Origin: a virus
IMG/VR virus record: IMGVR_UViG_3300023235_000014
Length of the DNA: 50,582 nt
Reading direction: 5' to 3' (one strand)
Positions 5,689 through 35,919 of the stretch are shown here, in pieces. Both the position numbers and the translations under genes were made by a program. Each line of letters begins with the position of its first letter. Within the stretch, counting starts at the first letter, position 1. Below the pieces are notes generated by a model, which was given only the letters and a program-made list of their open reading frames with translations, was not told where the DNA came from and did no database searches.

Positions 5689-5718
5689 CGGGGTTATCTT
5701 CTCTTTCTATTCATTTAG

Positions 5719-5790
5719 TGGGTCCACTCAGATTCGAACTGAGAACCAAGAAGTTAAAAGCTTCCTGCACTGCCATTGTGCTATAGACCC
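5719..5790 (-). tRNA. tRNA-Lys(UUU): tRNA-Lys (anticodon UUU)
   Basis: Minus strand reads GGGTCTA-TA-GCAC-AATGGCA-GTGC-A-GGAAG-CTTTTAA-CTTCT-TGGT-TCTCAG-TTCGAAT-CTGAG-TGGACCC-A. Acceptor stem is 7 bp with one G-U pair. The T-loop is TTCGAAT. The anticodon loop CTTTTAA gives anticodon TTT. Discriminator A. No CCA is encoded. Confidence 0.9.
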
Positions 5791-6147: not shown

Positions 6148-6363
6148 TCAAATCACCTTTTCACCTTTTTTTGTGAGGCTGCCGTTCTTTATTTTACAGA
6201 GCCTACTGAATACTTTCAACACACGCAAACGTGGGCAGGTTGGTGTTACCGACACATTAGATGTAGACACCAGAAAGTCACCATGAACAATCAGAGGTGC
6301 ACCACATGCCGCCCGCTCGGCAGCATTCTCTGAATAAATGTGTGTGTACTTACCTTTACTCAC
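6148..6363 (-). CDS. Hypothetical small protein (71 aa, GTG start overlapping the ligase stop)
   Basis: GTGA overlap with the stop of the DNA ligase gene. Weak RBS. Confidence 0.3.
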   Translation of the reverse strand: MSKGKYTHIYSENAAERAACGAPLIVHGDFLVSTSNVSVTPTCPRLRVLKVFSRLCKIKNGSLTKKGEKVI

Positions 6364-7421
6364 TCGTAGTCCCGCACCGCTACGAACTGTGGAAATCTTG
6401 GCACACCAGTTTCCTTGAACGTTTCTGTGTATCGAAAAGTAATTACCGACCCAAGTGGCGGTGGGTTTTTGCGGAGCTTGTGTGTAAGCCCACCAACCTT
6501 AGTTTCAACATTGCCCCACTTCAAACGGATCGAGCCAACCCTACCCTTGTGTTGGCCCTTACCATCGATGTATCCAACGACCACACCCTCATCATCGAAC
6601 CACTTCTTCACCTTCAGGCAGGTGTTGGACTTACCCTCTTCATACATTGAACCAGGCATGCGAATCATGATGCCCTCGCCGCCCTCAGCGACAATCTTGT
6701 CGACTCGCCTGGTAAGATCAGCAGCGGACTTACACCTGGTGTGCGGAAGCACACGAGCAACCCCACCCTTTGAACCAGGCTCCCAGACAGGAAAAAGCCC
6801 CTTGAGAAACTCAACACGAACCTCAAAAGCGTCACCTTGCTCTGGAGCGTCGAAAATCACATATGTGATGTTGTTCCACTCGTCATCATTCGGGATGAGC
6901 TTACGGGCAGCGCCCGAGGTCTTGGTAAAGTTTCCTCGACCAGCAAAAAGCTCGCCATCAAGAACAACGCCCCTGGGCAACTGTTCCTTAAACCACTTGG
7001 GTGCATGGAACTCATTGCCATTGCGACTTAGAAAGCGCTCACCAGTCCACCAGGCTCGAACGCCATCAAGCTTTTCGGACATCCACCAATCAGTCGGGTC
7101 CTCATTCTCCCACTTGTGGGCGAGTAACACGGGAGGTGCAGCATCCTTTTTGACGGCAGCCTTTCTCGGAGCGCCCTTGCCGCCCTTCTTCGGTTTGGCC
7201 TTTTTGCTGTCGTACATCGCATGGGCCTGCGGGAGCAAGCAGGCACGGTCAACGTTCGCACGGATGTGCTTGCAGACACGGAGATCAAGAGGGCCTCCGA
7301 TGTTCCGCCAGGCGGGGCAAGAACAGTCCACCACGCCGCCGACGTTTCTGAGCAGGTATGGTTTCTTTCCTGAACCCTTTACTTCGATTGAGTCGCCGTC
7401 GTTCAAAAACACTTTAGTCAT
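6360..7421 (-). CDS. ATP-dependent DNA ligase with N-terminal SWIM-type zinc finger and a basic Lys/Ala/Pro-rich linker
   Basis: Motif I EKLDGVRAW (KxDGxR), motif IV EGIMIR, motif V LKVKK, and a C-terminal OB-like region. The N-terminus has CSC-x16-CKH (CxC...CxH SWIM pattern) followed by KKAKPKKGGKGAPRKAAVKK. SD AAGGAAA upstream. Confidence 0.85.
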   Translation of the reverse strand: MTKVFLNDGDSIEVKGSGKKPYLLRNVGGVVDCSCPAWRNIGGPLDLRVCKHIRANVDRACLLPQAHAMYDSKKAKPKKGGKGAPRKAAVKKDAAPPVLLAHKWENEDPTDWWMSEKLDGVRAWWTGERFLSRNGNEFHAPKWFKEQLPRGVVLDGELFAGRGNFTKTSGAARKLIPNDDEWNNITYVIFDAPEQGDAFEVRVEFLKGLFPVWEPGSKGGVARVLPHTRCKSAADLTRRVDKIVAEGGEGIMIRMPGSMYEEGKSNTCLKVKKWFDDEGVVVGYIDGKGQHKGRVGSIRLKWGNVETKVGGLTHKLRKNPPPLGSVITFRYTETFKETGVPRFPQFVAVRDYE

Positions 7422-7865: not shown

Positions 7866-8246
7866 TCAGAGCCGTTCTAGAAGGTTGCCAGCAATACGCT
7901 CCTTGATACGTGAAATCACATAGACAAGGTGCTCGCTTGAGCCGTCTTCTTCTGCGTATAGAGGAGCCCATGAGGCTCCAATGGCCTCGTGCTCCTGAGG
8001 CTCCAGATAAGTTGCAGCCATCTTTAGTGAAGTCGCAGCATTACACCAACCGTGGTGATTGAAGCCATCACTTACACCCTCGACAACTTGGTCGAGGAGC
8101 TTATGGACGTACTTGATCGTCCTAAGACGATTCCTTTCCGCACGTTGTCTGCGTTTGTCTCTCTCTGTTTCTTTGTCACTCGTTGAACTGGAAGTCTCGC
8201 TGGTTTTTGGACCACTGGGCTTTTTCTTTACGTAATCTCTGCTCAT
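7866..8246 (-). CDS. Hypothetical protein (126 aa, basic Ser/Arg-rich N-terminus)
   Basis: ORF on the local coding strand. Confidence 0.45.
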   Translation of the reverse strand: MSRDYVKKKPSGPKTSETSSSTSDKETERDKRRQRAERNRLRTIKYVHKLLDQVVEGVSDGFNHHGWCNAATSLKMAATYLEPQEHEAIGASWAPLYAEEDGSSEHLVYVISRIKERIAGNLLERL

Positions 8247-8302
8247 TTTGCCTCTTCGTAGCGACCATTTGGTCGATTAGGTTACCAACTAGTGGTATCA
8301 TG

Positions 8303-8326
8303 TGGGCTCAATTAGTTGAACCCATT
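8303..8326 (-). promoter_or_regulatory. Imperfect hairpin carrying the AATGGGTTCAACT motif (terminator and/or weak promoter)
   Basis: Minus strand reads AATGGGTTCAACTAATTGAGCCCACATG, located 5 nt after the stop of gene 8331..8732. It has the same motif as the other four sites but a poor -10. Confidence 0.35.
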
Positions 8327-8330
8327 ATTT

Positions 8331-8732
8331 TCAGGGAGTTTTAAGTTTTTTGGCGGGCGAAAGTAGGTGTAGCGGGACAAGGTACTTCCGATCAAATCCT
8401 AGGATACAAGCCATATGTCTTGTCTTATTCCCAGTTGTGACCAAAAACCTTTTCAAGAACATTCCTAACGCTGGAAGCTCTGGTGACCTTCCTAACCATT
8501 TGTCTTCGTCCCTCGTTAAAGATGAGGATAAAATCCAACTAGGGGCACATTCTTCATACATCCGTGATGAATGATCAAGCACCACTGTTCTAAAAAACTG
8601 TTCCAAGTGCGGCTCAACCCTAATCGAATTACCTTCTGAAGATTCAAAAAGTTCCTCTGACAGAACTCTCCAACAAAGTGACTTTTTGTCGTCATTAATG
8701 TAGACGAGTTTGCCTGGGTGATACTTGGGCAT
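8331..8732 (-). CDS. Paralog-array member P5 (133 aa), HPGKLVYIN family
   Basis: N-terminal MPKYHPGKLVYIND and central RTVVLDHSS align with the KPGQLVVIN ... VMVMRHYV motifs of the other array members. Confidence 0.5.
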   Translation of the reverse strand: MPKYHPGKLVYINDDKKSLCWRVLSEELFESSEGNSIRVEPHLEQFFRTVVLDHSSRMYEECAPSWILSSSLTRDEDKWLGRSPELPALGMFLKRFLVTTGNKTRHMACILGFDRKYLVPLHLLSPAKKLKTP

Positions 8733-8742
8733 CGTTTATTGA

Positions 8743-9219
8743 CTATATCTTAGCAGGTTCGATCAAGGGAATAAACACTAATCCTGGATGCTTCGACAAT
8801 TTTTCTTCTGTAGTGTATTTGAGGAGGGACCTGCCAATACCTTCGTCCTTCTGTACGGCTATGACAGACTCGTACAACTTGTCTCCCGAAAGGAGGATAA
8901 GCGAGGCATAACCCAAATGGTTTAGGGCCCAGGAACCCCTTTTAGCAGATTTCTCGTAATGTTGTTGGCAGTGACACCAAGTAGGTTTTTTCACAACAAG
9001 CAGGATGGCCTCGGTCATAAAGTGCAAATGGGTCTTTGGGCGGCCTAAAGATGTTCCTGGAATTGGTGACTCAAGAGGAAGTGCCAAAAGTGAAAAACGA
9101 GGCCTTATGAGATTTCCAGGTTTCAAAACATCAGATGCATATTTTGCCGCATCAAGTTTGGACTCAAAAAGGGACTTGAGGAAAGCCTGTTTGTTGTATT
9201 CGTAGCTATAGGTTAACAT
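8743..9219 (-). CDS. Paralog-array member P6 (start trimmed to the internal Met; KPGNLI ... ILLVVKKPT)
   Basis: Contains LKPGNLIRPRF and ILLVVKKPTW. The full 197-aa track ORF overlaps P4 by 131 nt, so the internal start at 9219 is used. Confidence 0.4.
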   Translation of the reverse strand: MLTYSYEYNKQAFLKSLFESKLDAAKYASDVLKPGNLIRPRFSLLALPLESPIPGTSLGRPKTHLHFMTEAILLVVKKPTWCHCQQHYEKSAKRGSWALNHLGYASLILLSGDKLYESVIAVQKDEGIGRSLLKYTTEEKLSKHPGLVFIPLIEPAKI

Positions 9220-9547
9220 GTGCCTCGCTATTATTAATAGGTCGTATGATCCCCGAAATGCGACTCTGGAGGTCTCCCATATGGAGTATCTGTTCGTTAT
9301 ACAGAGAGTAGACTCGCAAGTATGGGTTTTTGCCACTTTCGGTTCTAAAGGTCAGGGTATTTACTTTTACTACCATAATAATTGCGTTAGCTGGAACTGG
9401 TACTAATTCAAAATCGCAGCCAACCATAGCGTCCCAAACGTCCCAACCGTCGGCGCCGAGCACCATCTGCGCCGTTTGTGCTCTTATGAAATATGTATCC
9501 ACACAAACCTGGTAGAGCTTACCAGCTCTTATTTTGGGTTCAAACAT
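9206..9547 (-). CDS. Paralog-array member P4 (113 aa; RAGKLYQV ... IIMVVKVNTL)
   Basis: Shares the family motifs. Confidence 0.45.
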   Translation of the reverse strand: MFEPKIRAGKLYQVCVDTYFIRAQTAQMVLGADGWDVWDAMVGCDFELVPVPANAIIMVVKVNTLTFRTESGKNPYLRVYSLYNEQILHMGDLQSRISGIIRPINNSEAHVNL

Positions 9548-9873
9548 GCTGGTATGGTAACATGTTTCCCAACCAAACTTGACTCACTTTGGTTGGTTAA
9601 CCTATTGCCCGATATGTAAAAAAGCCTACTGTCATGCAAGAAGACAAGAACTTCGCTAAACATTGGTTGCTCGGGAGAGTAATGGTTGTGGATACTGCCA
9701 CTGAGGACGTAGTGTCTCATTACCATAACAGAAGCACCTTCTGTCAGATGGTTGGAAACGCCCCAAAAACTTGGCTGTTTCGGGATATCGTCAAGGTCGG
9801 ACAAGCGGTATGCCAGCATGTTTCGGTTTATAACAACTAACTGCCCTGGTTTCAAAGTATTGCAGCTCTGCAT
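9529..9873 (-). CDS. Paralog-array member P1 (114 aa; KPGQLVVIN ... VMVMRHYVLS)
   Basis: Shares the family motifs. Confidence 0.5.
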   Translation of the reverse strand: MQSCNTLKPGQLVVINRNMLAYRLSDLDDIPKQPSFWGVSNHLTEGASVMVMRHYVLSGSIHNHYSPEQPMFSEVLVFLHDSRLFYISGNRLTNQSESSLVGKHVTIPACLNPK

Positions 9874-9897
9874 ATAGGGTAAGTGTGCAGACGGATA

Positions 9898-10290
9898 CTA
9901 TTCTTCACCAATTCTTTGATCTGGGATGGAAAAAATATTCCAGGGTGGCAGATAACAAAAGAATCGAACAATTTTTTCGCCTTGTAACAGGTCAAATTGT
10001 AGTGCTGCCATCATGGCTTGTTCGGTTTCAAGCCTTGGAACTTTAACAAGCAAGAATATTGTGTCTGTCTCAAAAGTCTTGTAGCGATACAGCTCCTCAT
10101 CGTCACCTTTAAGAATACGTACACTAATTGGGTGTTGGTTTACCAGAAGCATTCCAGGTTTATATGCCCGCTCAATTTTTTTCCAAAATAATGGGTTCGG
10201 GTTTTCGGCGTTATTGTACAACATCGAAATATTCGCTCCAAGTGTGGACGGATGTAGATATGCACAACTTCTCCCCGTATAGGAAAACAA
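9898..10290 (-). CDS. Paralog-array member P3 (KPGMLLVNQ ... IFLLVKVPRL); the true start is probably the internal Met at 10224
   Basis: Shares the family motifs. The 5' end overlaps P2. Confidence 0.4.
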   Translation of the reverse strand: MFSYTGRSCAYLHPSTLGANISMLYNNAENPNPLFWKKIERAYKPGMLLVNQHPISVRILKGDDEELYRYKTFETDTIFLLVKVPRLETEQAMMAALQFDLLQGEKIVRFFCYLPPWNIFSIPDQRIGEE

Positions 10291-10510
10291 TGCTTTTTGC
10301 GATAACGGCTGAAGTCCACCCTGGAAAGTAGTGTGTCGTGTCTGTTGGTACCTCTACCACCATTAGAATCTGGTCTCTACTGATTTTGAAGCCTCGAAGT
10401 GTTTTACGCTTGTCTATGGACAACTTTAGTTGATCTGAGAAGTCCAGTGGAATCTCCGAAACCTCCATGGTTGTCTTGGTGACTAGGAGCTGACCAGGTT
10501 TTATTTCCAC
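10211..10510 (-). CDS. Paralog-array member P2 (99 aa; MEIKPGQLLVT ... ILMVVEVPTD)
   Basis: Shares the family motifs. Confidence 0.5.
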   Translation of the reverse strand: MEIKPGQLLVTKTTMEVSEIPLDFSDQLKLSIDKRKTLRGFKISRDQILMVVEVPTDTTHYFPGWTSAVIAKSIVFLYGEKLCISTSVHTWSEYFDVVQ

Positions 10511-10515
10511 ATAAG

Positions 10516-10992
10516 TTAAATAGAGTGTCCATCAATGTCAAACTTAGTGTAATCAAATTCTACGGAAAACTCGCATGCCTCGGGTCTTACTTGAGCAGCA
10601 TAGCCAAAATCAATCGCATGTACAGTAGGCTCGTGGAAAGTCCAGGTTGAAAGTATCGCAGCCTCCTCTTCATCAAGAAAGTTAATTCTGAGTTCTTCCA
10701 TGCCTTCGTTTACCGACCTAAGGATTTCACCAAAGACGCCATTTTTGTGGCTACCATTGAATGTGAAGAGCAGATAGCCCTTCTCTGAATAGCCAACTTT
10801 GGGATTTAAATCGTTGAATATGTATTTGGGAAGAATAATGCTTTTTATGTCTTCCTGCTCAACTTCTAATCCTTCCACAAAGAAGTGGTCCTTGTGGACT
10901 GGTTCCCCAGGAGCGGGTTCTGCTGGAAGCTTTGCTGTCTTTCCTGACTCAATGGGGCCTTGAAACGTTGGCTCTTGATGTTCTTCACTCAT
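10516..10992 (-). CDS. Hypothetical acidic protein (158 aa)
   Basis: ORF on the local coding strand. Confidence 0.45.
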   Translation of the reverse strand: MSEEHQEPTFQGPIESGKTAKLPAEPAPGEPVHKDHFFVEGLEVEQEDIKSIILPKYIFNDLNPKVGYSEKGYLLFTFNGSHKNGVFGEILRSVNEGMEELRINFLDEEEAAILSTWTFHEPTVHAIDFGYAAQVRPEACEFSVEFDYTKFDIDGHSI

Positions 10993-11048
10993 ACCTGTAT
11001 TGTGCTTTCTGTTCTACCATTTGGATCACCTGCCTTGTTCAAATAACG

Positions 11049-11693
11049 TTACCAGGTTGAAGGATTTGTGTAGATGTCAGTCTTACTGGTTTTCCCATCC
11101 AAGATGTCATCAATTTTTCCGAAGCGTACTTCACTCTTGGCTCCTCGGGCATGCTGCTCCATAATATTGTCATAATAGGCTCGTCCTCGGTGCTCCCCAA
11201 CCATATTGGTAACTGATTCAAGAACAATTGACAGTTTCGTAACGAGGAGAGAACTCGGACAGATTAGCCATATGAGAAGTCCTAGCCACCATAGTCCTGT
11301 GCCAATGGTTGCAAGCCCCACAAAAAGCCCCAAAAGCCCAAAAGTGAACCCTCGTTGTACTGATTGGCGAACATGCCTCATTTCGTGGTGTAATGTAAAT
11401 GTGTTCATTCCATTTTCAGAAAGCATGATGGCGTAAGGGAACAAAGCAGTGCCGTTCCAGGGTTTCTTGTGCTTAGAGCCATCTGAGTAAGTCTTTTCAA
11501 GGAGGTACCACCCTCCAAACTTTTTCTCATCATTGACAGGCCAAGAGTCATTTCTCAGAACGGTACAAAGTGCACCTTCCCACCAGAAAAGCCGCCGACC
11601 CCACATTGCATGGATGACCAAAACTACCAGCCAGCCAAAAAGGGCAAGTAGTGGCACAGAGCATATTCTCAATATCGTAAAAAATGTATTCAT
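11049..11693 (-). CDS. Integral membrane protein with an HExxH motif (possible membrane zinc metallopeptidase-like)
   Basis: Several hydrophobic helices (LLALFGWLVVLVIHAMW, FGLLGLFVGLATIGTGLWWLGLLIWLI) flank LHHEMRHVRQ. Confidence 0.45.
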   Translation of the reverse strand: MNTFFTILRICSVPLLALFGWLVVLVIHAMWGRRLFWWEGALCTVLRNDSWPVNDEKKFGGWYLLEKTYSDGSKHKKPWNGTALFPYAIMLSENGMNTFTLHHEMRHVRQSVQRGFTFGLLGLFVGLATIGTGLWWLGLLIWLICPSSLLVTKLSIVLESVTNMVGEHRGRAYYDNIMEQHARGAKSEVRFGKIDDILDGKTSKTDIYTNPSTW

Positions 11694-11709: not shown

Positions 11710-14700
11710 TTAGGCGAGAACTTTCGATTCGATGCCGTCGTTTTTGACTTCGATCATTCGTTCAGCAACCTCCTTGACTGGAGTGACATGCGAAATCACA
11801 AGAATCGTCTTGAAGTACCCACGAAGGAAGGTAAGCATATCCATACAGCTCTGGATGTTATTTTCATCCAACGCACCGAAGCCCTCATCGATAATGAGCA
11901 CATCGGGTTTTGGAAGCGACGATAGGTTGATTAACGCAGCCCTTAGGGCCATGCTTGCAATTGTCTTTTCCATGCCAGAAGCCAACTCGATAATACGCTG
12001 GCTGTGTTCATCCTGAATATAGACGTCCATGACATTGGAGTTAATATCAGTCTCCAGACCAATCTTGAAGTCGGTGATACCCTCAAGAATCTTTGACAGT
12101 TCTTCGTTGATGGCAGGAAGCTGGGACTTGAGGACCATAGCGGGGATTCCCGTCTTTGAGAATGCGGATAGGATGGAGTCATAAATCTTCAATTTGCCTA
12201 TCAACGATTTTGTTTCTTCCTCTTCCATAATAAGGTTTTTCAACCCCTCTTTCTTGCCGCCTAGTTTTACCAGGGTTTCCTGGCGCCTTGTTTCAATATC
12301 CGCAACTAGTTGACGACATTTATCAAGCTGAATTTTCTTCTTCTCATACTCTTTGCCCTCTAACACGTTGACCTTCTTCTTCAATGAAGAAATTTCGTCC
12401 TTGATTTTCTTGACTTCAAGTTTTGTTGATGTGAACTCCTTTTTCAGGAGTTCACGGTGCTTTTTGCTTGATTCAATAGTGCGAATAAGATCAAATTCCT
12501 GACGGTCCAAGGTTTGGTGTGTGGTAATCTGCTCACGAAGTTTTTTAGCAACGTACTCTTCAAAAGTCTTTTCATTTATCTCATATTGGGACGTGAGTTT
12601 CTTTACCAGCTCTTCTTGAGTTTTAACCTTCTTTTTGTCTCGGTGACCGTCTTTGATATAATGGCAGTCTGGAAACTGGTCACCACAAGGCACGACTTCC
12701 AGTTTTTTGATGTTCTTTTTCTGGTTGTTTAGTACGGCCTTGTGCGAGTTCAGCTCTGCTCTAAGTTCATGCAAAAGCGACTTTAAGGATTCAAATTCTT
12801 CAAGCTGTTCCTTGAGCGACACAACGTCGATTTTCTTCTTGTCAGCCTTTACGTCTTTCAGCTTAGTTTCATTAGATTTGAGTCCTGATTTTAGTCTTAC
12901 AAGACTGTCTGACTTTGCCTTGACAGTCTTTTCACCAGCAATCACCTTTCGCTCCAGCTCTTCCATGTGAGCGAGGTCGACATCCGCAGCATTTTTTTCG
13001 TGATGCATCAGCCAAAGCTTGACTGAATCCTTTTGCTCACGGAGTTTTCGTAGTCGCTCCTCAAGTGAGCCAACTTCATTTTCTCCCTGGGCAATTATCT
13101 TCCTCGTTTTCACGATTTGATTGCTTACGGTCTGTGGTGAAAGAGAGTTTCCACGAGTGTTAAGTCCGCTGTAATCATCCTTGCAGAGGTAATAGAGGTT
13201 GTCAAATATATCAAGTTCTAGGAAGCGAGCCAGAATTTTCTTTCGCTCTGTTGGGCCTTCCTTGATAAAGCGATCTACCGAGCCCTGAGAGGACAGGGCA
13301 GTCAGTAGAAAGTCATTGGATGTTCCGACAAGCTTTCTGATTTCTTTGTCCGTGTCGTCACGAGTGACGGAGTTCATAACCACTTTTTTCTCGTGACCTG
13401 TTACTTCATCCCGTTCAATGCGATAGAAATTCAAAGTGGTGGTGGTCTTGTTCGGGTCTCGCTTTGAAGTCTTCTTTTTAGGGACGACCCTAGTGCTCTT
13501 TCGTTCAACGATATAATCCGTGCCACCCACATTGATACGGACCTTACCACGACACCAATTTTTACGTCGGTTAATGATGTGAGCATTTTTCATCGGACCA
13601 CGATCGGTGGTGTTGTACAAAACATACATCAAGGCTCCGACAATGCTGCTTTTCCCTATCTTGTTTGGACCGAAAATACCTACTATGCCCTCTAGGTCTG
13701 AGAAATCAATTTTATTGCCTTCGCCGTAACGGAAAATGTTGTCAAACTCCAGATATTTGATCGACCAGTTGGTTGTCCTGGCAATTTTGTCTGAGTCTCG
13801 AATCATGAGCTTTGACATGTAACCACGAATAAGCTGGTCTGCTTCTTCGATAGCATCACGGTCAAAGTTGTAGCTAGCGATATGAGCTGTTAGATAATCT
13901 AAGTAAAGCCGAACAACTGCGTCTGGATCCTGCCTTAGGCTTTTTTTGGAAATCTTAAGGTTGTCATTTGTAGACACATGGTCCATTCTTGACAACATAT
14001 TGTATTTAAAGACTACCTCAGAAGCTTTCTTCTCTTCCCTGAGCGAATGGACCAATTTTCGGGCTTCGACACTAGGAATTGCTGAAGAGGAGGACACACG
14101 GAAACGGCTGCCCTTGAGGAAAGCTCGTGTGCCCCTTGAATCCTTGACTTTTTGCAGTGTGTTTTCAACTGAGCCTTCCCAGCCAATGGTTATAAAGGGC
14201 ATGCGGTTCTCAAGCTCATGGAACTTGATGGACCAGTCATCCTTGTCCTTTATGTCCCAAATCAAGTAACCCTTCTTTTCGGATTCTCCGAAGTTTTGTT
14301 GAATCAGGGAGCCAGGGTAAGCCATCCAAGGCTTAAGTTTTCCATTTTTGTCTTTACGCTGTGCTAGAGTCTGGTGCTTGTGAATGTCACCAAGCAAAGT
14401 AAAATCAAACTGTGCAAAGTCAGTAGTCACTGCTTCGGCGATGCCTTCTGGCATCTTCCAGTTGTTGTCCATTAAAGAACCTGCAACCGAACCGTGGTAT
14501 AATGCTATATTGATCGCCCCTTCGATAGGTTTGACTTTGGGCCAGCCCTTTTGATCAAAAGGGGAATATACACACAGATGGACGTCTTTTCCTTTAACTT
14601 TCTCGCTGAGTTTGAAAGTTCCTGATTCACGTAGTAGGTGAGCACGAGGGTGCGCAATGGATTCGTGAATTGGTGTGATTGTATCCTTGCGATATAAATT

Positions 14701-14958
14701 CGTCAGATTGCCATCGTGATTCCCTAAGATGGTGTAAGACGGTGCGATGTCCGCAAGCGAGCGAAACATCCAAGCAAGCCGTTCAATGATTTCTGGTGTT
14801 ATACCCTGGGTTTTGGTATGGAACGTATCCCCTGTATTCACAATTAGGTCTGGCTTGTGGTGTCGAAGCTCTTCAAAAAGACGTTCAAAAGCTTGAACGT
14901 ACTCTTTATGACGAGAAATGCCACGCCAATGTATGTCGGAGATGTGAGCAATTTTCAT
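11710..14958 (-). CDS. Mre11-Rad50 fusion (SbcD nuclease fused to SbcC ATPase; T4 gp47+gp46 equivalents in one 1082-aa polypeptide)
   Basis: N-terminal calcineurin-like phosphoesterase motifs HISDIHW, GDTFH, GNHD, HGS and GDIHKHQ (Mre11 motifs I to V). Walker A GIFGPNKIGKSS. Long coiled-coil. Signature LASGMEK, Walker B VLIIDEGF and D-loop ALD at the C-terminus. Start taken at the ATG at 14958 (MKIAHISDIHWRG), with AAGGA 9 nt upstream; the longer track start at 15030 is rejected. Confidence 0.85.
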   Translation of the reverse strand: MKIAHISDIHWRGISRHKEYVQAFERLFEELRHHKPDLIVNTGDTFHTKTQGITPEIIERLAWMFRSLADIAPSYTILGNHDGNLTNLYRKDTITPIHESIAHPRAHLLRESGTFKLSEKVKGKDVHLCVYSPFDQKGWPKVKPIEGAINIALYHGSVAGSLMDNNWKMPEGIAEAVTTDFAQFDFTLLGDIHKHQTLAQRKDKNGKLKPWMAYPGSLIQQNFGESEKKGYLIWDIKDKDDWSIKFHELENRMPFITIGWEGSVENTLQKVKDSRGTRAFLKGSRFRVSSSSAIPSVEARKLVHSLREEKKASEVVFKYNMLSRMDHVSTNDNLKISKKSLRQDPDAVVRLYLDYLTAHIASYNFDRDAIEEADQLIRGYMSKLMIRDSDKIARTTNWSIKYLEFDNIFRYGEGNKIDFSDLEGIVGIFGPNKIGKSSIVGALMYVLYNTTDRGPMKNAHIINRRKNWCRGKVRINVGGTDYIVERKSTRVVPKKKTSKRDPNKTTTTLNFYRIERDEVTGHEKKVVMNSVTRDDTDKEIRKLVGTSNDFLLTALSSQGSVDRFIKEGPTERKKILARFLELDIFDNLYYLCKDDYSGLNTRGNSLSPQTVSNQIVKTRKIIAQGENEVGSLEERLRKLREQKDSVKLWLMHHEKNAADVDLAHMEELERKVIAGEKTVKAKSDSLVRLKSGLKSNETKLKDVKADKKKIDVVSLKEQLEEFESLKSLLHELRAELNSHKAVLNNQKKNIKKLEVVPCGDQFPDCHYIKDGHRDKKKVKTQEELVKKLTSQYEINEKTFEEYVAKKLREQITTHQTLDRQEFDLIRTIESSKKHRELLKKEFTSTKLEVKKIKDEISSLKKKVNVLEGKEYEKKKIQLDKCRQLVADIETRRQETLVKLGGKKEGLKNLIMEEEETKSLIGKLKIYDSILSAFSKTGIPAMVLKSQLPAINEELSKILEGITDFKIGLETDINSNVMDVYIQDEHSQRIIELASGMEKTIASMALRAALINLSSLPKPDVLIIDEGFGALDENNIQSCMDMLTFLRGYFKTILVISHVTPVKEVAERMIEVKNDGIESKVLA

Positions 14959-14961
14959 ATT
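14920..14961. repeat. Copy A of a 45-nt duplicated block (true mre11 5' end)
   Basis: gccacgccaatgtatgtcggagatgtgagcaattttcatatt, compared with copy B at 15606..15647, gccacgccaatgaataccagatatgtgagcaattttcatatt. The flanks are identical (20 and 13 nt). The central 12 nt have 5 substitutions. Confidence 0.8.
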
Positions 14962-15644
14962 GAGTCCTTTTTCAGAAGGGCTTTGGTCCGAGCCCCCCAA
15001 GTTTTTGTTTTTTTGTGGCATGAAATACAAAGTGTTCTTCCGTTACCAATATCCCACAGTTCGACACATTTCACAGCTTCCTCCAGGGTCTCGATGGCAT
15101 TTCTCTGTATCAACAGAGCCAGAGGAACAATATGGTCTGCATTCAGATTTCCACCTTTTGTTTTGCAAAATTGACAGGTGTAATCATCTTTTTCAAAAAC
15201 TGCTTGCCGCCAATTCTTGGATTCAATTCTATCTCGCAAGGCTTTGTTTAAGGTTTTCTTGTGTTGGTCTACTGGTTTCCAGTTGGGACTCTTCCTCCCA
15301 GCCAACCTTCCTTTGTTTGCCTTGCTTATTTTGTTCTTGGTGTGGTCAGAATGAGTTTTTCCAAAAAATCCATTGTTCTTACCACAAGTCGCCCGAGACA
15401 TCTTTTCCAAAGATTGCCTTGTGTGCTTACGACCAAAAAAAGCATTTTTGTTGCCCTGGGCAGCTTCTGTTCTAGTTCTTCTCGGGATGCCAAATTTAAT
15501 CAACTTGGCTCGCACAGTCGCATACGTAACGCCAAACAACTCTGCAACTTGCCTTAAAGATAACTCTTGTGTGCAATACAGTTTGGTAAGTGTTTCTTTG
15601 TTAGTGCCACGCCAATGAATACCAGATATGTGAGCAATTTTCAT
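14955..15644 (-). CDS. HNH homing endonuclease (N-terminal HTH, NUMOD3-like repeats, C-terminal HNH); its first 13 codons duplicate the mre11 start
   Basis: MKIAHISGIHWRG, then LRQVAELFGVTYATVRAKLIKFGIP (HTH), then GKTHSDHTKNKISKANKG (NUMOD3-like), then CQFC...NADHIVP...NGRTLCISCH (HNH). The stop TGA overlaps the mre11 ATG. Confidence 0.85.
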   Translation of the reverse strand: MKIAHISGIHWRGTNKETLTKLYCTQELSLRQVAELFGVTYATVRAKLIKFGIPRRTRTEAAQGNKNAFFGRKHTRQSLEKMSRATCGKNNGFFGKTHSDHTKNKISKANKGRLAGRKSPNWKPVDQHKKTLNKALRDRIESKNWRQAVFEKDDYTCQFCKTKGGNLNADHIVPLALLIQRNAIETLEEAVKCVELWDIGNGRTLCISCHKKTKTWGARTKALLKKDSI

Positions 15645-17399: not shown

Positions 17400-19841
17400 A
17401 TGAGAGCACGAATCAAAAGAACTGCGAATATCATGCAAGTCCCAAGCGAGTTTGCCAAACTGGAAAAAATTACCCAGGGTGGTGAGTTTGTTTACAAAGT
17501 CAAATTCAGGATTGACCCAGTCAAGGCTGCGAGGGCCAAGGCATTCAAAGTTCGTATCTCAGCTGCTGAGCAGCCTGAGGTAAAGAAGACCTTTCGGACC
17601 TTTACCAATTTCAATGCCGAACTTATCACCAAACGCTTGTTAGCACGTCCAGCGGCGCTCAAGGACATTGCTCGGCAAAGGGATAGCGCTAGGTTTTTTA
17701 CCTATTTGTCGGATATCACTAAACGAATTCCAAATAGCCGAACCATACACCTGTCGAAAGGCGTTTTCACAGCGCCCCAGATCGCTACGAAGGTTCGACG
17801 AATACGTCCTGCACTAGCAAGTGATTTAACAGATAGAAACTTACGTCTACCAGTTCTAGACCAAAACCTAAATCGTAACATCGATTCAGATAGAACAGTC
17901 TCAACTCGGCTGATTCGTTCTTCAGCCACAAGGTTGCTTTTTGGCTGCAAGTGTGACCCAGCAAGCTTCGTTGGTGCTCGTACAAACGTTATTCGTTCTG
18001 CGGTTAGAGCCTCTGCTGGAACCGTCTCGAAAAAGACTCCGTCAAATCAGTCCAGGCTTGCCCCAGGGAGACTGTTGGTCGGGTCTCTTTTGAATAACCG
18101 ACGGTACTCCAATCAGGCTCAAGTCAATTCATCACGTTTTCTCAACACAATCGTCCGTGAAGAGTCTTCCTGGATCGAAATTGAAGAAGAGCTGCGCATT
18201 CCCATCGGCGACCTTGATGAGGACGAGTTCTACTATATTTTTGAACTGGTCGATATGCGGAATATTCGTGTTCAAACTATCACACGTGCTGTGCCTCACA
18301 GCAAAAATGTATCCCAACTTCAAATTCCAACAAAGGCTCCAACCGTTTCTGCTGTCCCCATTGGGAAACTCGGTAAAACTGTTTTGAATATTAAACAGAA
18401 CGACCTCAATGCAACATCCGTCAACATCTACAGACGTGATGTCAAAAAAGCTGTACCAAATATCGATGCACAGTATGACCTAGTAGGTTCCCTTGATATT
18501 GAACAAGGATATGGTTTCAGAAAAATAGAAGACGTGTACGCATCTACCAATCCTATCATCTACCGTGTTGTGCCAGTAAACTCAAATGGTATTCTAGGCG
18601 CTGAATTCGACTCTGTCGTCGTTCAACAACAAAGAGGGAACTTGGCCTCTAGAACTAACTTTTTCCGACGAACCTATTACGTTTCAGTTACACACGAAAT
18701 TTTGGATAGCTCTATCGTCATTTCAGTCTCTGATGTTCCTTCAGGGCCTATCGCCGTTAGTTTACAACGCAAGGATAAGACGATAAACCAAAGGACGTTT
18801 ACGAGCATCGGTGACATCACACTAGTAGATGAAGATTCTAACGCTCCTATTGTATTTGAGGATTCCTCGGTTAAGGAAGACCGCATCTATGAGTACCGTG
18901 TAATTCTATTGTTCATTGATGGAGCTTCGGAGATAGCAGCAAATAACCTTATCATCGAATTTTGCCCTATCGCTAACAACATTCTGAGTTTGGAGGTCAC
19001 CGAGCCAGAGGTGGAGGAATCAGGAGATGACGTTGATGTCATCTTCAATATAACAAAAAATGTAATCCAGGGGGACGCAGATTTAGTTAAAACTTTCCTA
19101 GGTGAGCAGGGATTTACATCGGAATACCAAGACCAGCTGCTGGCCAACCGTAACTTGCTTCAAGATTTGTTTGCTGTCAGAATTACCAGAACCAACCTGG
19201 GCACTGGTGAATTGGAAGATTTTGGCATTATTGATAGTGCAGATTTCTCAGACAAGAAATTCGGGAGAGTTAAAGGAGTAAAACCTTTGCAGGGTGGGTT
19301 TGGTTATAACTACAATATCACAGCTCACGCCCGAGAAACGGACACACTCTTTGAAACCTTATCTAGAACAATTACTCCACGAACAAATGTCAGTTACTCA
19401 TTTGCACCAGCTAAGTGGAAACACCCATTGGCTCTGCTCAGGGGCAATCTCTCTAGTCAATCTTCTCGACTAAGAAACCACTCAAAGAGTACCTTTACTT
19501 TTGGTCGGGTTGTTGATACACAAAATGTAGTTGTATCTTTAGCTGACATAATTCCTTCTTTGACCGAGGGCAAGATCAGCCAGTTTGGAGAGAGTAATAT
19601 TTTTATCCAATGGAAAGTTCAGGGTAATGTCAATAAGATAGACCATTTCATAGTTATCCTTGACGTTCTTGGCATTCGAACTGTTGTTGGCAAATCACAC
19701 AACATCACGAATTCCAACTACTTCCAATTTGTAGATGAACTTACAAACCAAGAGTGTGGAGAATTGACCTACTACATTGTTCCTGTGATGTTCGACTATA
19801 GTCGGGGTCCAGAACTCAAAACAAACTCGGTGGTAATTTAA
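17400..19841 (+). CDS. Large protein (813 aa), probable virion structural protein
   Basis: Long ORF. First of a co-directional run of giant ORFs joined by TAATG junctions. Confidence 0.6.
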   Translation: MRARIKRTANIMQVPSEFAKLEKITQGGEFVYKVKFRIDPVKAARAKAFKVRISAAEQPEVKKTFRTFTNFNAELITKRLLARPAALKDIARQRDSARFFTYLSDITKRIPNSRTIHLSKGVFTAPQIATKVRRIRPALASDLTDRNLRLPVLDQNLNRNIDSDRTVSTRLIRSSATRLLFGCKCDPASFVGARTNVIRSAVRASAGTVSKKTPSNQSRLAPGRLLVGSLLNNRRYSNQAQVNSSRFLNTIVREESSWIEIEEELRIPIGDLDEDEFYYIFELVDMRNIRVQTITRAVPHSKNVSQLQIPTKAPTVSAVPIGKLGKTVLNIKQNDLNATSVNIYRRDVKKAVPNIDAQYDLVGSLDIEQGYGFRKIEDVYASTNPIIYRVVPVNSNGILGAEFDSVVVQQQRGNLASRTNFFRRTYYVSVTHEILDSSIVISVSDVPSGPIAVSLQRKDKTINQRTFTSIGDITLVDEDSNAPIVFEDSSVKEDRIYEYRVILLFIDGASEIAANNLIIEFCPIANNILSLEVTEPEVEESGDDVDVIFNITKNVIQGDADLVKTFLGEQGFTSEYQDQLLANRNLLQDLFAVRITRTNLGTGELEDFGIIDSADFSDKKFGRVKGVKPLQGGFGYNYNITAHARETDTLFETLSRTITPRTNVSYSFAPAKWKHPLALLRGNLSSQSSRLRNHSKSTFTFGRVVDTQNVVVSLADIIPSLTEGKISQFGESNIFIQWKVQGNVNKIDHFIVILDVLGIRTVVGKSHNITNSNYFQFVDELTNQECGELTYYIVPVMFDYSRGPELKTNSVVI

Positions 19842-22800
19842 TGGCACGTAGAAAGCGCAGAACCAAGTCAACTGGGACGGCAGCCGTGCTCGGACGTTTG
19901 TCAACCCAGGCGGTTGTACCTACAAGTACAAGCAGAAGAACGTCAACTCGGACGAGTTCGGCTTCGACCTCAGTTTCAAGGGTGGGAACCAAAAGGCCAG
20001 CTGTAACAGCTGTCTTTCCTCGGTCCAGTCCCAGGGGCACGTCGCCGCTTACTCTTCGACAACTGCCTGTAACGAACAATCTGAATATTAGTGGGGTCGC
20101 CGACCTTCGTCGGTTAACTCGCACCATAAGATTGCCACAATTCAAACTTCAGCTTCCGCTGTTGAAGCGACCCCCTGCCGAGAAATACTCTGAGGATGTT
20201 CTAGATGTGTCTGAAACTCGTCTCGCAAACTCACAATTCGTTCCACTTGAACGTAATGGCATTTCTGCATTTCGCCCTGAAATAATCCAAATAACAGACT
20301 TCCTGCCTGTATGGAAGGATAGGTCACAAGCACGTTACCTTAAGGATTTCTCACCTGCTGGCAAACTCATTGACACTCAATACAATGCACTGTGGCTCCG
20401 ACGTGACACATTGGTCGGTCTTCTGGAAGGCATGTCCAAAGACAACAACCAAAGAACAGCGGAAATTTTGTCAGGGATTCGCAACCGATGGCAGAGCAAT
20501 TTGGGACGAACTGACAGAACTATAGAGTGGTATGGTCAAATCCTTGATAAGGTTGAAGTGATTAAAAAGCTGCTTGATCTCAAGGACATTCCTAGGTCGG
20601 ACTTTGACAAGCACCTTCTCCCATTGGATGACTTTTTTGACCGCCGAATGCAGCTCTCAAAAGATAAGCTCGACGCCTTTTCTGATACCAAAATCATCCT
20701 TCAACTGCTTGCTGATTTCAAGGAAATTTCTGAAAACTACTCGGTCAACCTGCTTGACCTAGAAGACAGCGATCGAGTCAATGATTTTGACCCAGTTAGC
20801 ATCGACACCACCTACACACTGAATGATGGGTTTTCATTCACGATTGACCAAATACGTTCAAGGAACTTAGCAGCGAATGCAGCTCAGCGTTCCTTTTTCA
20901 ACACCTTCTTGAACTCGTTACCAAATGATCCTGATGATAGACTTCGTTTGCTGTTGACAATAATCAGCAAAGAATACCGCATTTCTAGAAGTCTTGGTAT
21001 CCCTAAAATTAAAAGAAAATTACAGGATGTCTTTGCAAGCGGAGATACAGGCTCACCTTTTGACAACATAATCGGCATTCCTGGAACTGATATATTTGAG
21101 CAGCCGCTCGGGGACAGATCACTATCTTCTTTGTTTGTACAACCCTTATCAGAAAACTCGGTCGTGCTTCCACTTGAGAAGAAATACGTTGATGCGAGTG
21201 ACAGCAAAAAGACATTCATTCCTGGGAGTGGCTTTTTTGTCGACTCCGTGCTCCAGATCACTGATGGCCGATTCAACACACAACCTTACGTGAATTTTGC
21301 TAACCAGGTTTCCAGCCGAATCAACGAAGCAAGCAATCTCATCTCTGAGATGTTCAGTCTCAATAAGCAAGGAACTTTAAACGCTGACCCGCTCGTGGAC
21401 CTTGTTTATACTTCTTTCAGGGATGCCACTGTTGGCATGATTGATCTAAACAGCTTGAATCGTGACCAGGCAGTAATCACTGCTATCTTTAAACTGGCTA
21501 ACACAGACAACGAACTCAAAAGTAAGTTATTCCAATTCTGTATGCTTTCGGGCCTTGCAAGCACCTCACCTAACGATCAAAAGCCTGTGTTTCAGGAGCT
21601 TGCTCGTGAATTTGGGAATATCCGTTCCTTCCCTAATGTAAATGTTTCCAAGCGAAGGAACCCAAGGCTGGGCGGCGGGATCCGTACTTTACGACCATAC
21701 CTGCAACGCCTAGCGGCGGACATAGAAAATCGAGTTATTGCCCTGACAACTTCTGCTCCCAAGTTTAACCTTGGTCTAGTCCTAAGAGCCAGTCCAGATT
21801 ATACCAGGTTCAGAGCAACCAAGTCTCCGAGAGACATCAACCTTTCAGCCCATGCGAGACTTTCCGTTAACGCTTTGACCTTCAACCAAACTACTATCAA
21901 CATCCCTCGTTACACCATCCGTAAAATTCTGATGAGCAACGTGGATCCGAAATCTGCAACCTCAACAAATCTTATTAAACAATTTGTAGATATCGCAAAT
22001 TCACTTACGCAAGCCGCAACTCACAACGGAGAATCCGTTCACCTCCTTGACGATCAATCGGGCCGCACTCGGTTCAACTTCCTTAGCACAAGTACCCAGC
22101 TTTTGATCATTTTTGAAATCCTTGCAAGCATGACATCCAAATACAGTTTTTCGAGCTTTGGTAGATCAAGAAGTATTTTTAGCACCTTCATCACAATCGA
22201 TGCACAAAAAAGCGATTTCGTTGTTAAATCAATCAACGACGTCATTACGGTCCGACCTATTCAATTTTCACCTGCGCTACTCAGACGTTCCACTACTCGT
22301 CTTCCACGTGCAGCGCTGACAACACTCGCATCCAAAAACTCAAAGACATCGACTGCATTTAGTAGGTTACTCACTCCGACTCTTACCAGGATTATGCGTT
22401 CAGGAGATTCCACAGCGAACACTAGTAAGACAGCCATGGCTGCGAGCACGCTTAGCTTCTTGACCGACAACAACAGTCGGACTTCAGGCAATACGAAAAC
22501 GCTGGTTAATAGGAACCTAGGCTCAGCTTTCCTTGGGACCCGCCTTATTCAGAAATTGGGGCCTGCAAATATTGAAGCTCTGTCATTCTCACGTGACACA
22601 ATCAACCTCAAAAACAACCTGAAGGCGACAAAAAACAAGGTGGTTACTGAGGATAAGATTATTGAAAATATCCTCAACATCCTTTCAGTTGTTGAAGGTC
22701 GAATTCGAAGCGGAAAAAGGAGTATGGTAAACTTCTTCTCTCCAGAATTCCTAAATAACTTCCTTACAGAAAACTCGATTGAGGACTTGGCTATTGCTCG

Positions 22801-33298: not shown

Positions 33299-33330
33299 AT
33301 TGTTAAATAGCGAACCTCTACTTATGGGTG

Positions 33331-35919
33331 ATGCCAAAACGTCGAAAAAGTCTTAAGTCCCTTGTGGAAGCTCTAGAAGAGTCGGGTTATGCTGGCCAAG
33401 GGCACGGTTCGGGTGCAGAAAGTTTCTACGGAGGCTTTTTTGGATATGGTGGGGACAAACAACTCGCTAAAAAACAAGACCCAACTGTTCGCAGAATAAA
33501 GCAAATGACAGACGCTGAAGCTGGAGCTAACTTCCAGGCCAAGCAACAGCGAGGCCGAGGCTACCCCGCTTCTAGAGATAGCCTTGGAATTTCAGACAAG
33601 GGTGGTGTTGGTGCAAGTTTTCCTGGAGAGGAGTTGAACCAGGTGGGCAAAAGTCCACAAAAGCTTGACTCAATGTATATTACAGATCCTCGCAAGGACT
33701 ATTGGAGTGATCGTGTTGTTGAAGACGAGGTGGTAGTCCTGGCTGATGAAGCTGAAGAACAGCGACGTGAAGAAGAGCGGGAACTTAAGGAACAAGGTGG
33801 AACGGCCAGTGGCGGGGGCGCTGGGCGAGCCGTAGCTTCTGATAGCAGGCACAGAGACCTTCCAGGTTGGCCTCGCATGAATTCCGTTGAAGAGCCTGTG
33901 GACTTTGTTCCTGAAGTTGAAGGAGACATCGATGGTGATGGTGAAGAGGACGTGTATTTGGAAGATGACGAATATGTCAATGACGTAATGAGGTTAAATG
34001 GCCTTTCGTTTGCACCAGGTCAATTTAAGCGCCTGTTTGGCGTGGACTCTTTGGAAGAGCGAACCCTTTATCACGGAACTGTCATTGACAACAAGGAAAG
34101 CATAGAAAAATATGGGTTTTCAGGTGAGCTAGGAGATTTCGTAAAAGATTCTTATGGCATGGAATTTGACGACGACACCTTAGAAGGTGTGACTTTTGCT
34201 GCACAAAAAGACGATATGGGTAAAGCCGAAGGTGCAATTCGCTACCACATTGGCAAGAAGATTGGGAAGTCGATCGGTGAGGTTACCATTGAAGACATTC
34301 GTCGTTGGGGCATGCTCGCCGTTCTCAAAGAGATTGAAGAAGACGATGATTACGGCGACGGGTGGAGACGACGTCCTGAAAACTGGGAAGTTGAAGGTTA
34401 CTATGATGAATACCCACCCGCTGTTGAACCTGGTGATTGGTTTACGGAAAATAACGTACACGTAGACCACATACTCACAGGTCAGAAACTTGTAGATTTC
34501 CTCAGACGTCATGGGGCACTTGAACATGTTGAAGGTGAAAATGAAAGAGAAGTTCTTCAGGATTTGATTCAGGCTGCTGTAATCTACCATGGCCCAGATT
34601 CTAGGGATGCCGTGGTGAAAAAAGTTAAAGCGCTGACCCACAAAGAACGTAAAAAGATGCTTTCCGTTTATTTTGACAATTACGGAGATGAAATTCAAGC
34701 CAGGCTTGACAAACAACGACACCAAAAATATGGCACTCAAAAAGCCAAACAACTGAAACTGGACTTCAGCGAGGGTAAATTGTCATTGAAGAGTGTGTTC
34801 TTCGAGAGCAATAGCGAAACTAGAAAAACTGCCGTTATCATTAAAGGAAACCCGAAGTATATCGAAGGTAGCCAAGAAGCCTCCAGCTTCTACAAGGAAA
34901 TAAGATCGTTCTTGGAAGATGAGGGTTATGACGTCCAAATGCATTCAGGCGAGCCTTTTTCAACACCACCCAAGGCAGACCTGTGGGCAGGGCACTCAAG
35001 AGGTGTCGACAGGCTCACCCACGCCCCAGAAGAAATCAAGACAGTTGCAATCGGCACATCCGACGGCATTGCTCATCCCAGGGACAACTCAGCGAAGATA
35101 GATGGCAAACCACCCAAAGGTTTTAAGCCTAACAAATATCACTATGTGTTCACAGACGAGATGAAGAAGGCACTGACGTCTGAAAAGATCGAGGAACAAG
35201 GTTCTAACACACCAGGTGGGTCTGAACGTTACAAACAAGGTAAATTGGTCAGAGACCATGAACCTGATGCGACAAAGAAGCTAATCAAACATGTGGATTA
35301 CACAGGTGGTCATGCAGAAATGGCCGCAGCTAATCACAGCCCAGGAGCACAGGCATACGGAAATGTCGCTGCCCCCAAGGACTTCGTACCAGAGGACTGG
35401 GAACAGAGGCACCCGAAAACGAAAGAAGCACCTATCGACATGGAAACCATGGAAACAATTGAAGAGGTGATTGGACACCTCGTAAAAGAGGCGCTTGCAG
35501 AGCGTACTGTGATGTCCTCAAAGAAACTAGCCAAGAAGCTCCGTAAAAATAGGGAGCCTGGTTGTGACCACGTGAGACAAAAGGGCTCGCACGCAGTCTA
35601 CCAGTGTGGTCTTTGCAGTACCGTCGTTCCAATGCACGGCTCCAAAGACATCAAGCATGGAACCCTCAAGTCGATCGAAAAAGACCTTGAAGGCTGCTTG
35701 GGAAATGACTGGCTCGATGAATCCATTTCCGCCGTGGTGTCTCAGGCGCTCGGTGAGGCTTTCACTGGCATAGATGATGAGACGGGCGAAGGAAAAGCCA
35801 CAGGCGGCTCAGAAGCTTTTAATAAATCCCGTAAGAGTGTTTTAGACTACAATGAGAAGCAAAGTCCTGAAGGCGTAGAAGACCTTGAGAATTATCATCT
35901 AGGAGATGACGACAAATGA
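33331..35919 (+). CDS. Large acidic multidomain protein (about 862 aa) with an ART/Tpt1-like YHGT motif, a GHSRG serine-hydrolase motif and a C-terminal HicA-like domain
   Basis: ATG at 33331 (the track's GTG at 33328 is adjacent). LYHGTVIDNKESIEKYGF at aa about 247 (compare diphtheria toxin SYHGTKPGYVDSIQKG and Tpt1 LYHGT). WAGHSRGV (GxSxG) at aa about 555. KKLAKKLRKNREPGCDHVRQKGSHAVYQ...VPMHGSKDIKHGTLKSIEKDL at aa 729 to 787 matches the HicA family (GSH, PxH, K-GTL). Confidence 0.65.
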   Translation: MPKRRKSLKSLVEALEESGYAGQGHGSGAESFYGGFFGYGGDKQLAKKQDPTVRRIKQMTDAEAGANFQAKQQRGRGYPASRDSLGISDKGGVGASFPGEELNQVGKSPQKLDSMYITDPRKDYWSDRVVEDEVVVLADEAEEQRREEERELKEQGGTASGGGAGRAVASDSRHRDLPGWPRMNSVEEPVDFVPEVEGDIDGDGEEDVYLEDDEYVNDVMRLNGLSFAPGQFKRLFGVDSLEERTLYHGTVIDNKESIEKYGFSGELGDFVKDSYGMEFDDDTLEGVTFAAQKDDMGKAEGAIRYHIGKKIGKSIGEVTIEDIRRWGMLAVLKEIEEDDDYGDGWRRRPENWEVEGYYDEYPPAVEPGDWFTENNVHVDHILTGQKLVDFLRRHGALEHVEGENEREVLQDLIQAAVIYHGPDSRDAVVKKVKALTHKERKKMLSVYFDNYGDEIQARLDKQRHQKYGTQKAKQLKLDFSEGKLSLKSVFFESNSETRKTAVIIKGNPKYIEGSQEASSFYKEIRSFLEDEGYDVQMHSGEPFSTPPKADLWAGHSRGVDRLTHAPEEIKTVAIGTSDGIAHPRDNSAKIDGKPPKGFKPNKYHYVFTDEMKKALTSEKIEEQGSNTPGGSERYKQGKLVRDHEPDATKKLIKHVDYTGGHAEMAAANHSPGAQAYGNVAAPKDFVPEDWEQRHPKTKEAPIDMETMETIEEVIGHLVKEALAERTVMSSKKLAKKLRKNREPGCDHVRQKGSHAVYQCGLCSTVVPMHGSKDIKHGTLKSIEKDLEGCLGNDWLDESISAVVSQALGEAFTGIDDETGEGKATGGSEAFNKSRKSVLDYNEKQSPEGVEDLENYHLGDDDK

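Follow-up and report, generated by a model that had tools for sequence, protein, structure and literature searches.

What unites a row of six small genes that resemble one another in little more than a few short motifs, and what would a phage use them for? The question is raised by positions 8331-10510 of the IMG/VR virus record IMGVR_UViG_3300023235_000014 (50,582 nucleotides, hereafter the window). A preliminary description made from the sequence alone had noticed six consecutive minus-strand open reading frames (ORFs) there and taken them for paralogues of an old, rapidly diverging family. We designate these ORFs A to F, in the 5' to 3' direction of their strand. Judged by profile comparison, A-E and a further type, G, which is absent from the window, are one homologous family, whereas F is a probable but unproven, very divergent member. 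Our leading reading, which we hold tentatively, is that this is a lineage-specific family of SH3-like proteins which arose by ancient tandem duplication among huge phages of one clade (with relatives on contigs of 343 and 461 kb) and whose members would serve as specialised partner-binding modules.

The six ORFs were confirmed at 8331-10510, arranged head to tail and tightly packed. Paralogue A (10211-10510, minus strand as all the others, 99 amino acids, aa) begins with GTG 5 nucleotides (nt) past the stop codon of an upstream gene for a 158-aa protein. The others start with ATG: B (9898-10224, 108 aa), C (9529-9873, 114 aa), D (9206-9547, 113 aa), E (8743-9219, 158 aa) and F (8331-8732, 133 aa), which always closes the array. 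E is distinguished by an N-terminal extension, a CxCxxH...H insertion and a conserved C-terminal tail. The short overlaps reported earlier are found at three junctions and range from 14 to 19 nt (A/B 14, C/D 19, D/E 14); the other three junctions are gaps of 5-24 nt (5 between the 158-aa gene and A, 24 between B and C, 10 between E and F). On L008, a contig of the same phage, genes called independently had identical lengths of 99, 108, 114, 113, 158 and 133 aa. Automatic gene calling is unreliable across the array: in three other contigs of the same phage C was miscalled as an opposite-strand 68-aa ORF (L002 6122-6328, L003 776-982, L004 459-665), and in the 343-kb contig L013 the A-type (8771-9079) and C-type (9388-9720) genes were left uncalled. 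C is a real gene and the 68-aa call is wrong; its orthologues in L013 and L023 (429-782) differ from each other at a proportion of 0.17 of non-synonymous sites (pN) against 0.67 of synonymous sites (pS). A repeat search found no DNA-level repeats in 8200-11100 and no sign of recent duplication, and no signal exceeding that of shuffled sequences was found in a promoter and terminator scan inside the array.

Compared as six single sequences by the Smith-Waterman method, A-B, A-C, A-E, B-E and C-F reached z = 3-4, while the D pairs and most F pairs lay at the noise level. MAFFT alignment brought out three colinear motifs, namely an N-proximal xPGxL, a hydrophobic strand (ILMVVEVP and its variants; hhhVVKVP) and hhLxGEKh; the last of these, in the form LxGEKL, is common to A-E and had been overlooked. 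Homology was retested after orthologues from related contigs had been added, using leave-one-group-out hidden Markov models (HMMs), hhalign comparison of orthogroup profiles and column-shuffled nulls. The leave-one-group-out HMMs gave P = 1.5e-7 for A, 1e-6 for G, 5.9e-6 for C, 6.7e-5 for E and 5.6e-4 for B. D was recovered with P = 1.3e-8 through its L001 orthologue, whereas the D protein of the window itself reached only P = 0.04 (33 of 500 shuffles), so that D owes its membership to its orthologues and to the D-group profile. At most one of the 500 shuffles matched the real score of the best member in each group (A-E and G).

Thin hhalign profiles of 1-3 sequences had yielded single-motif local matches only, falsely implying no homology, and were replaced by richer orthogroup profiles. 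With these, the alignments were full-length (80-92 columns), with P values ranging from 2e-8 to 9e-4 (B-G 2.4e-8, D-G 5e-8, C-D 2.3e-5, A-C 1.2e-4, A-D 1.3e-4, B-E 1.4e-4, A-E 2.9e-4). Against column-shuffled target profiles, z was 6-34 overall (C-D 10.9, A-D 8.0, A-E 6.2, B-E 7.5, E-G 7.8; range for B-E and B-D 7.5-8.3) and no null attained the real score. The A-E pairs, with z = 6-11, thus scored clearly better than the shuffled controls that the preliminary description had named as the test of relatedness. All of A-E and G show both the three colinear motifs and a significant match to the profile of the other types.

The sixth paralogue of the preliminary description is less secure than the other five, and the alignment and HMM proposed there, which united A-E and supplied an additional motif, did not support F to the same standard. 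In the leave-one-out HMM, F reached P = 0.018-0.04 (15-46 of 500 shuffles attained its score), and it scored 3 bits against the core HMM. Compared with single types by hhalign, it gave z values of -0.8 to 3.2, and compared with the pooled core 4.4 (P = 0.02), the signal coming mainly from the N-terminal xPGxL. The second motif proposed for it, TVVLDHSS, is not conserved among the F orthologues, whose conserved part is a C-terminal PxLPxxGhhhxxhxV...T(x)R...L...Y/FhVxLH. Its structure model is of low confidence and SH3/Tudor-like. Its invariable position at the array end also suggests that F is a divergent member. A further small gene, H (L013 10504-10974, 156 aa), separates E from F in the 343-kb relative; its product opens with MMPGDLVQYV and has at its end ...WAVLFDKRIFLV, a motif recalling the family; a profile comparison with the family gave no significant match. 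H may be another very divergent member that was lost from the window phage. For F and H, pairwise profile comparisons gave P values of at least 0.01, and only the core-versus-F comparison came to z = 4.4.

The family is extremely rare: only 15 matches came from 1.84 billion representative proteins searched exhaustively with the HMM, all of them in syntenic loci of related phages; the distant relatives were reached only by this search, the word-indexed protein searches giving 7 matches each, nearly all from the same phage and its close relatives. In line with the preliminary description, which could assign the motif to none, no described family corresponds to it, the searches of Pfam, PHROGs, NCBIfam and PDB sequences all being blank. 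Pfam showed no SH3, SH3b, Tudor or KOW family in 25 family members (E up to 10) or in the six window proteins (E up to 1), the best PHROGs hits (E = 0.26-0.3) were to unrelated short PHROGs of unknown function, and there was no match in Pfam and NCBIfam, which include some anti-CRISPR (Acr) families. Neither did a PDB sequence search with the family profile find anything. Megablast found no match to the array and its surroundings (10 kb) among 50,697 phage records, and a search of IMG/VR for related loci with the SbcC-like protein encoded next to the array found no relative. When this protein was compared with the phage records by tblastn, the best matches were only 28-31% identical (the 484-kb uncultured phage LR756508 and Microcystis phage Mel-JY01); these nearest deposited phages carry no family members near their SbcC.

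Among the relatives, the order G-[158-aa gene]-A-B-C-D-E-(H)-F is kept and the copy number varies from 2 to 8. The window phage has A-F and lacks G and H. The 343,196-bp contig L013/L015 has G (7926-8255), the 158-aa gene, A, B, C, D, E, H and F, followed by the orthologue of the gene at 7866-8246 of the window. Three loci lie on short contigs: B, C, D and E in L023; the 158-aa gene, A, D, E and F in L001 (L007 for full-length E and F), which lacks B and C; and G, the 158-aa gene, A, B and D in L005/L006, which lacks C. The 460,987-bp contig L017 retains only A and B, followed directly by the 7866-8246 orthologue. Orthologues of B were found in P0013, P0020, L005 and L017, those of D in L001, L006, L013 and L023, and those of E in P0009 and P0015. 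Since the same types occur in the same order in these phages, types and order must predate their split, and the differences are losses. The preliminary description was right in considering the family old, as the order is shared with relatives that have 83% and 68% identity to the window in SbcC, and right in assigning it to a plastic region, the gene content between SbcC and DNA ligase being variable; the copy number, which it suggested comparing among relatives, does differ. Two weaker family-HMM matches were also noticed in L013, at 19216-19677 (E = 3e-5) and 19667-20050 (E = 0.023), about 9 kb past the array and beyond the DNA ligase; the window has no counterpart of this pair.

The members of the array evolve at unequal rates. 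Between the window and the 343-kb relative, the pair to which all identities given here refer unless stated otherwise, the backbone proteins are 73-83% identical (SbcC 83%, primase 78%, a 214-aa membrane protein 76%, the 158-aa protein 73%), whereas B-F are only 32-45% identical (C 45%, E 42%, B 38%, D 34%, F 32%), which bears out, for these five, the rapid divergence claimed earlier. A (72%) is the slowest-evolving member and keeps the pace of the backbone; the values for the ligase and for the 126-aa protein encoded at 7866-8246 are 65% and 57%, respectively. In every orthologue pair, those of C and F included, pN (0.15-0.39) is far below pS (0.67-0.95, synonymous sites being saturated), which identifies all six ORFs as constrained coding genes, and the ratio of non-synonymous to synonymous substitution rates (dN/dS) is 0.04-0.11 where dS can be estimated. 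The pN of B-F (0.30-0.39) compared with that of the backbone (0.08-0.14) corresponds to about 2-4 times faster non-synonymous change. There is no sign of positive selection at the whole-gene level.

The SH3-like or beta-barrel fold anticipated from the sequence agrees with the AlphaFold2 model of A, which was computed with a 10-sequence family alignment. The model (predicted local distance difference test score, pLDDT, 82.7; predicted template modelling score, pTM, 0.70) is nearly all-beta, with strands at residues 8-11, 15-20, 39-43, 48-60, 69-78, 81-87 and 95-97 and a helical insertion of lower confidence at residues 21-38. It is predicted to form a compact five- to six-stranded barrel superposable on solved SH3, SH3b or Tudor domains. 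Its structural neighbours include SH3b domains (NlpC/P60 enzymes, lysostaphin, endolysins), the SH3 domains of RecD2, Dda, Pif1 and TraI, EF-P domain I and CarD. The family-wide conserved positions (P5, G6, L8, I43, L49-E53, I74, L77, G79-L82 and F95 in the numbering of A) are those of the motifs, while the insertion and the loops are conserved within a type only, as D23, D33-T37, P55, D57, P63-W65, C83, W91 and Y94 are in type A. In E, residues about 79-104, after the central strand, hold the C-x-C-x2-H ... H insertion (PTWCHCQQH...NHLGYASL), which occurs in all E orthologues and in no other type and is a possible zinc site. The members are probably cytoplasmic proteins of about 95-165 aa which, going by the model, form an SH3-like beta-barrel, and their isoelectric points are mostly acidic or neutral (4.5-6.7).

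These observations suggest to us a set of modules made alongside the replication and repair genes, each paralogue of which would bind a fixed partner of its own through its type-specific loops, which comprise the strand 2-3 insertion, the distal loop and the C-terminal tail. The isoelectric points suggest protein rather than nucleic-acid ligands, and with most members acidic or neutral, an Sso7d/Cren7-like DNA-binding role seemed improbable. For B-F, protein ligands are favoured because these members are dispensable, fast-evolving and mostly not basic, and because a precedent exists in Nip of the Bacillus phage phi3T, a protein with predicted SH3-like domains which binds and neutralises the host SpbK TIR defence system (PMC11984713). 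Nip differs from the array proteins, having 279 aa, two SH3-like domains and, in addition, an HU-like dimerisation domain; homology is not expected and the likeness is one of analogy only. Host takeover or counter-defence would be the most likely use of B-F, and A may act with the adjacent 158-aa protein, given its co-evolution with this protein and with the backbone. Stated in full, this would be a clade-specific toolkit in which each paralogue attaches by its loops to a host protein of its own, for instance a defence effector or a factor of replication or repair, and neutralises or redirects it, while E binds zinc and A works with the 158-aa protein; so specific a combination we consider unlikely.

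Several points weigh against our leading reading of specialised partner-binding modules. The array is placed inside a minus-strand block of DNA-metabolism genes comprising RNA ligase, UvdE, DNA ligase (6360-7421), an SbcCD-like nuclease/ATPase (11710-14958), a NUMOD3 endonuclease and a Toprim primase. The best structural neighbours of the A model are the SH3 domains of superfamily 1B (SF1B) helicases. Stable orthogroups under purifying selection fit housekeeping as well as counter-defence, the membership of F is unproven, and the function, whether host takeover, counter-defence or replisome accessory, is only inferred.

Some of these points favour the main rival, according to which the proteins are accessory subunits of phage replication, recombination or repair, namely stand-alone SH3-like 2B domains of the SF1B (RecD/Dda/Pif1) type which bind single-stranded DNA or dock on the SbcCD-like nuclease, the primase or the ligase. 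The array has the SbcCD-like nuclease on one side and DNA ligase on the other and shares its strand with the primase and RNA ligase genes, which is in agreement with this rival, as are the backbone rate of A and its 158-aa neighbour and the top matches of a Foldseek search of BFVD, which were phage helicases and RecD-like proteins, although all were weak (E >= 0.025). However, B-F are dispensable across the relatives, the 461-kb phage managing with A and B, their pN is well above that of the backbone, and most members are acidic or neutral. We consider an accessory role somewhat unlikely for the family, though it is the closest competitor of binding to protein targets.

A strict arms-race array, in which recent duplicates evolve under positive selection in anti-defence or host range, is the explanation offered in the preliminary description if taken in its narrowest sense, and the fast divergence of B-F relative to their neighbours, the variable copy number and the plasticity of the region would all suit it. 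Distant relatives, however, carry orthologues of every type in an unchanged order, losses account for the variation in copy number, no DNA-level repeat was found and pN is far below pS. The pattern is one of stable orthogroups with lineage-specific losses and not of recent duplication, and we regard this explanation as improbable.

The fixed order of several types, the apparent translational coupling through the overlaps and the SH3-like fold would also be expected if the paralogues co-assembled into a hetero-oligomer comparable to the mixed Sm/LSm rings, the gene order reflecting the assembly. An Sm-like hetero-ring was rejected as the main explanation because the copy number varies from 2 to 8 among the relatives, and co-assembly as such appears very improbable. 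That there is no family, the short motifs being chance likenesses among unrelated small ORFs, could be argued from the weak raw pairwise scores and the single-motif matches of thin profiles and is conceivable for F alone, but it is refuted for A-E by the leave-one-out HMMs, full-length profile alignments and column-shuffle nulls and has a negligible chance of being correct.

The genes on either side of the array deserve attention as well. The 158-aa gene (10516-10992, minus strand), which always lies directly upstream of A and is not a family member, adjoins A in L001, L005, L013, L017 and L012, with the same 5-nt gap in the window, L001, L005 and L013. Its protein is 73% identical with that of L013 and 46% with that of L017, compared with 72% and 36% for A, and these matched rates of divergence suggest that it may be a functional partner of A. 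No family or PDB match was found for it, and tblastn against the phage records gave nothing. The gene for the 126-aa protein (window 7866-8246, minus strand; L013 11445-11798; L017 10642-11055) always follows the array. Its product, for which no family or PDB match was found either, contains a strongly conserved basic stretch, RRQRAERNRLRTIKYVHKLLDQ, which is reminiscent of bZIP and bHLH basic regions.

The gene for the 214-aa predicted membrane protein (11049-11693, minus strand) separates SbcC from the 158-aa gene. An HExxH motif is present in the protein (HHEMRH, with HEHVH as its form in the 461-kb relative), which in Pfam faintly matches the putative metallopeptidase family DUF6782 (E = 0.095); in L005, type G stands in its place. 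The SbcC-like protein of L017 (4535-8800) has 1421 aa compared with 1082 aa for that of the window, and its Walker A P-loop (GPNRIGK|...|SSIVGA) is interrupted by about 340 aa that faintly match LAGLIDADG; from its sequence, this insertion looks like an intein. Directly upstream of the SbcC-like gene of the window and overlapping its start, a 229-aa NUMOD3-domain protein (14955-15644, minus strand) is encoded, probably a homing endonuclease. A single tRNA-Lys gene (anticodon TTT, 5718-5790, minus strand) is found among the minus-strand early genes. On the plus strand, a HicA toxin domain (residues 744-787, E = 5.6e-10) was recognised close to the C-terminal end of an 863-aa protein (33328-35919), and most other large proteins (813, 1364, 602, 782 and 552 aa) had no Pfam match.

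Nothing in these results contradicts what is expected of phage accessory genes; the definition of the family is solid and its situation a common one. Huge phages carry hundreds of genes without known function, and an ordered set of 2-8 paralogues without known sequence relatives is a well-defined experimental target among them, since the fold model is confident, the type-specific surfaces are clear and loss variants occur naturally. If the proteins are inhibitors or adaptors of host proteins, they would represent a new scaffold among phage host-manipulation proteins, and a toolkit that neutralises host proteins would be a new counter-defence or host-takeover family built on the SH3-like fold. 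If they are replisome accessories, they would be informative on the DNA metabolism of huge phages.

In comparison with known systems, the array proteins are alike in predicted fold to the SH3-like superfold (bacterial SH3b, eukaryotic SH3, Tudor, KOW and chromo barrels) without a sequence-profile relation to the Pfam SH3, SH3b, Tudor and KOW families. In contrast to SH3b systems, they stand alone, have a long type-specific insertion between strands 2 and 3 and lack a signal peptide or a catalytic partner domain, and, unlike those of SH3b lysis-module proteins, their genes belong to an early DNA-metabolism block. The structural likeness to the 2B domain of SF1B helicases (UL5 of herpes simplex virus 1, RecD2, T4 Dda, Pif1, TraI), at 3-16% identity, may reflect the superfold alone; the array proteins differ from them in being stand-alone proteins of 95-165 aa without a RecA-like domain, helicase motifs or any other Pfam or NCBIfam domain. 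The Vibrio cholerae integron cassette protein VCH_CASS4 (PDB 3g1j) is a structural match at 13% identity without sequence-level relation, and it adds no mechanism, as the title of its PDB entry gives no function. Nor do the array proteins conform to the Sm/LSm/Hfq pattern of N-terminal helix, bent five-stranded sheet, Sm1/Sm2 and ring. Plastic regions with small accessory genes in multiple copies are common in large phages, and the array shares with such families the tandem small paralogues between core genes, the variable copy number and a divergence faster than that of the backbone. The family is thus, although new by sequence, apparently familiar in kind. It differs from these families in that its types are stable, ordered orthogroups under purifying selection and not recent lineage-specific expansions, and its most notable feature is that paralogue order and specialisation have been kept across phages of roughly 340-460 kb.

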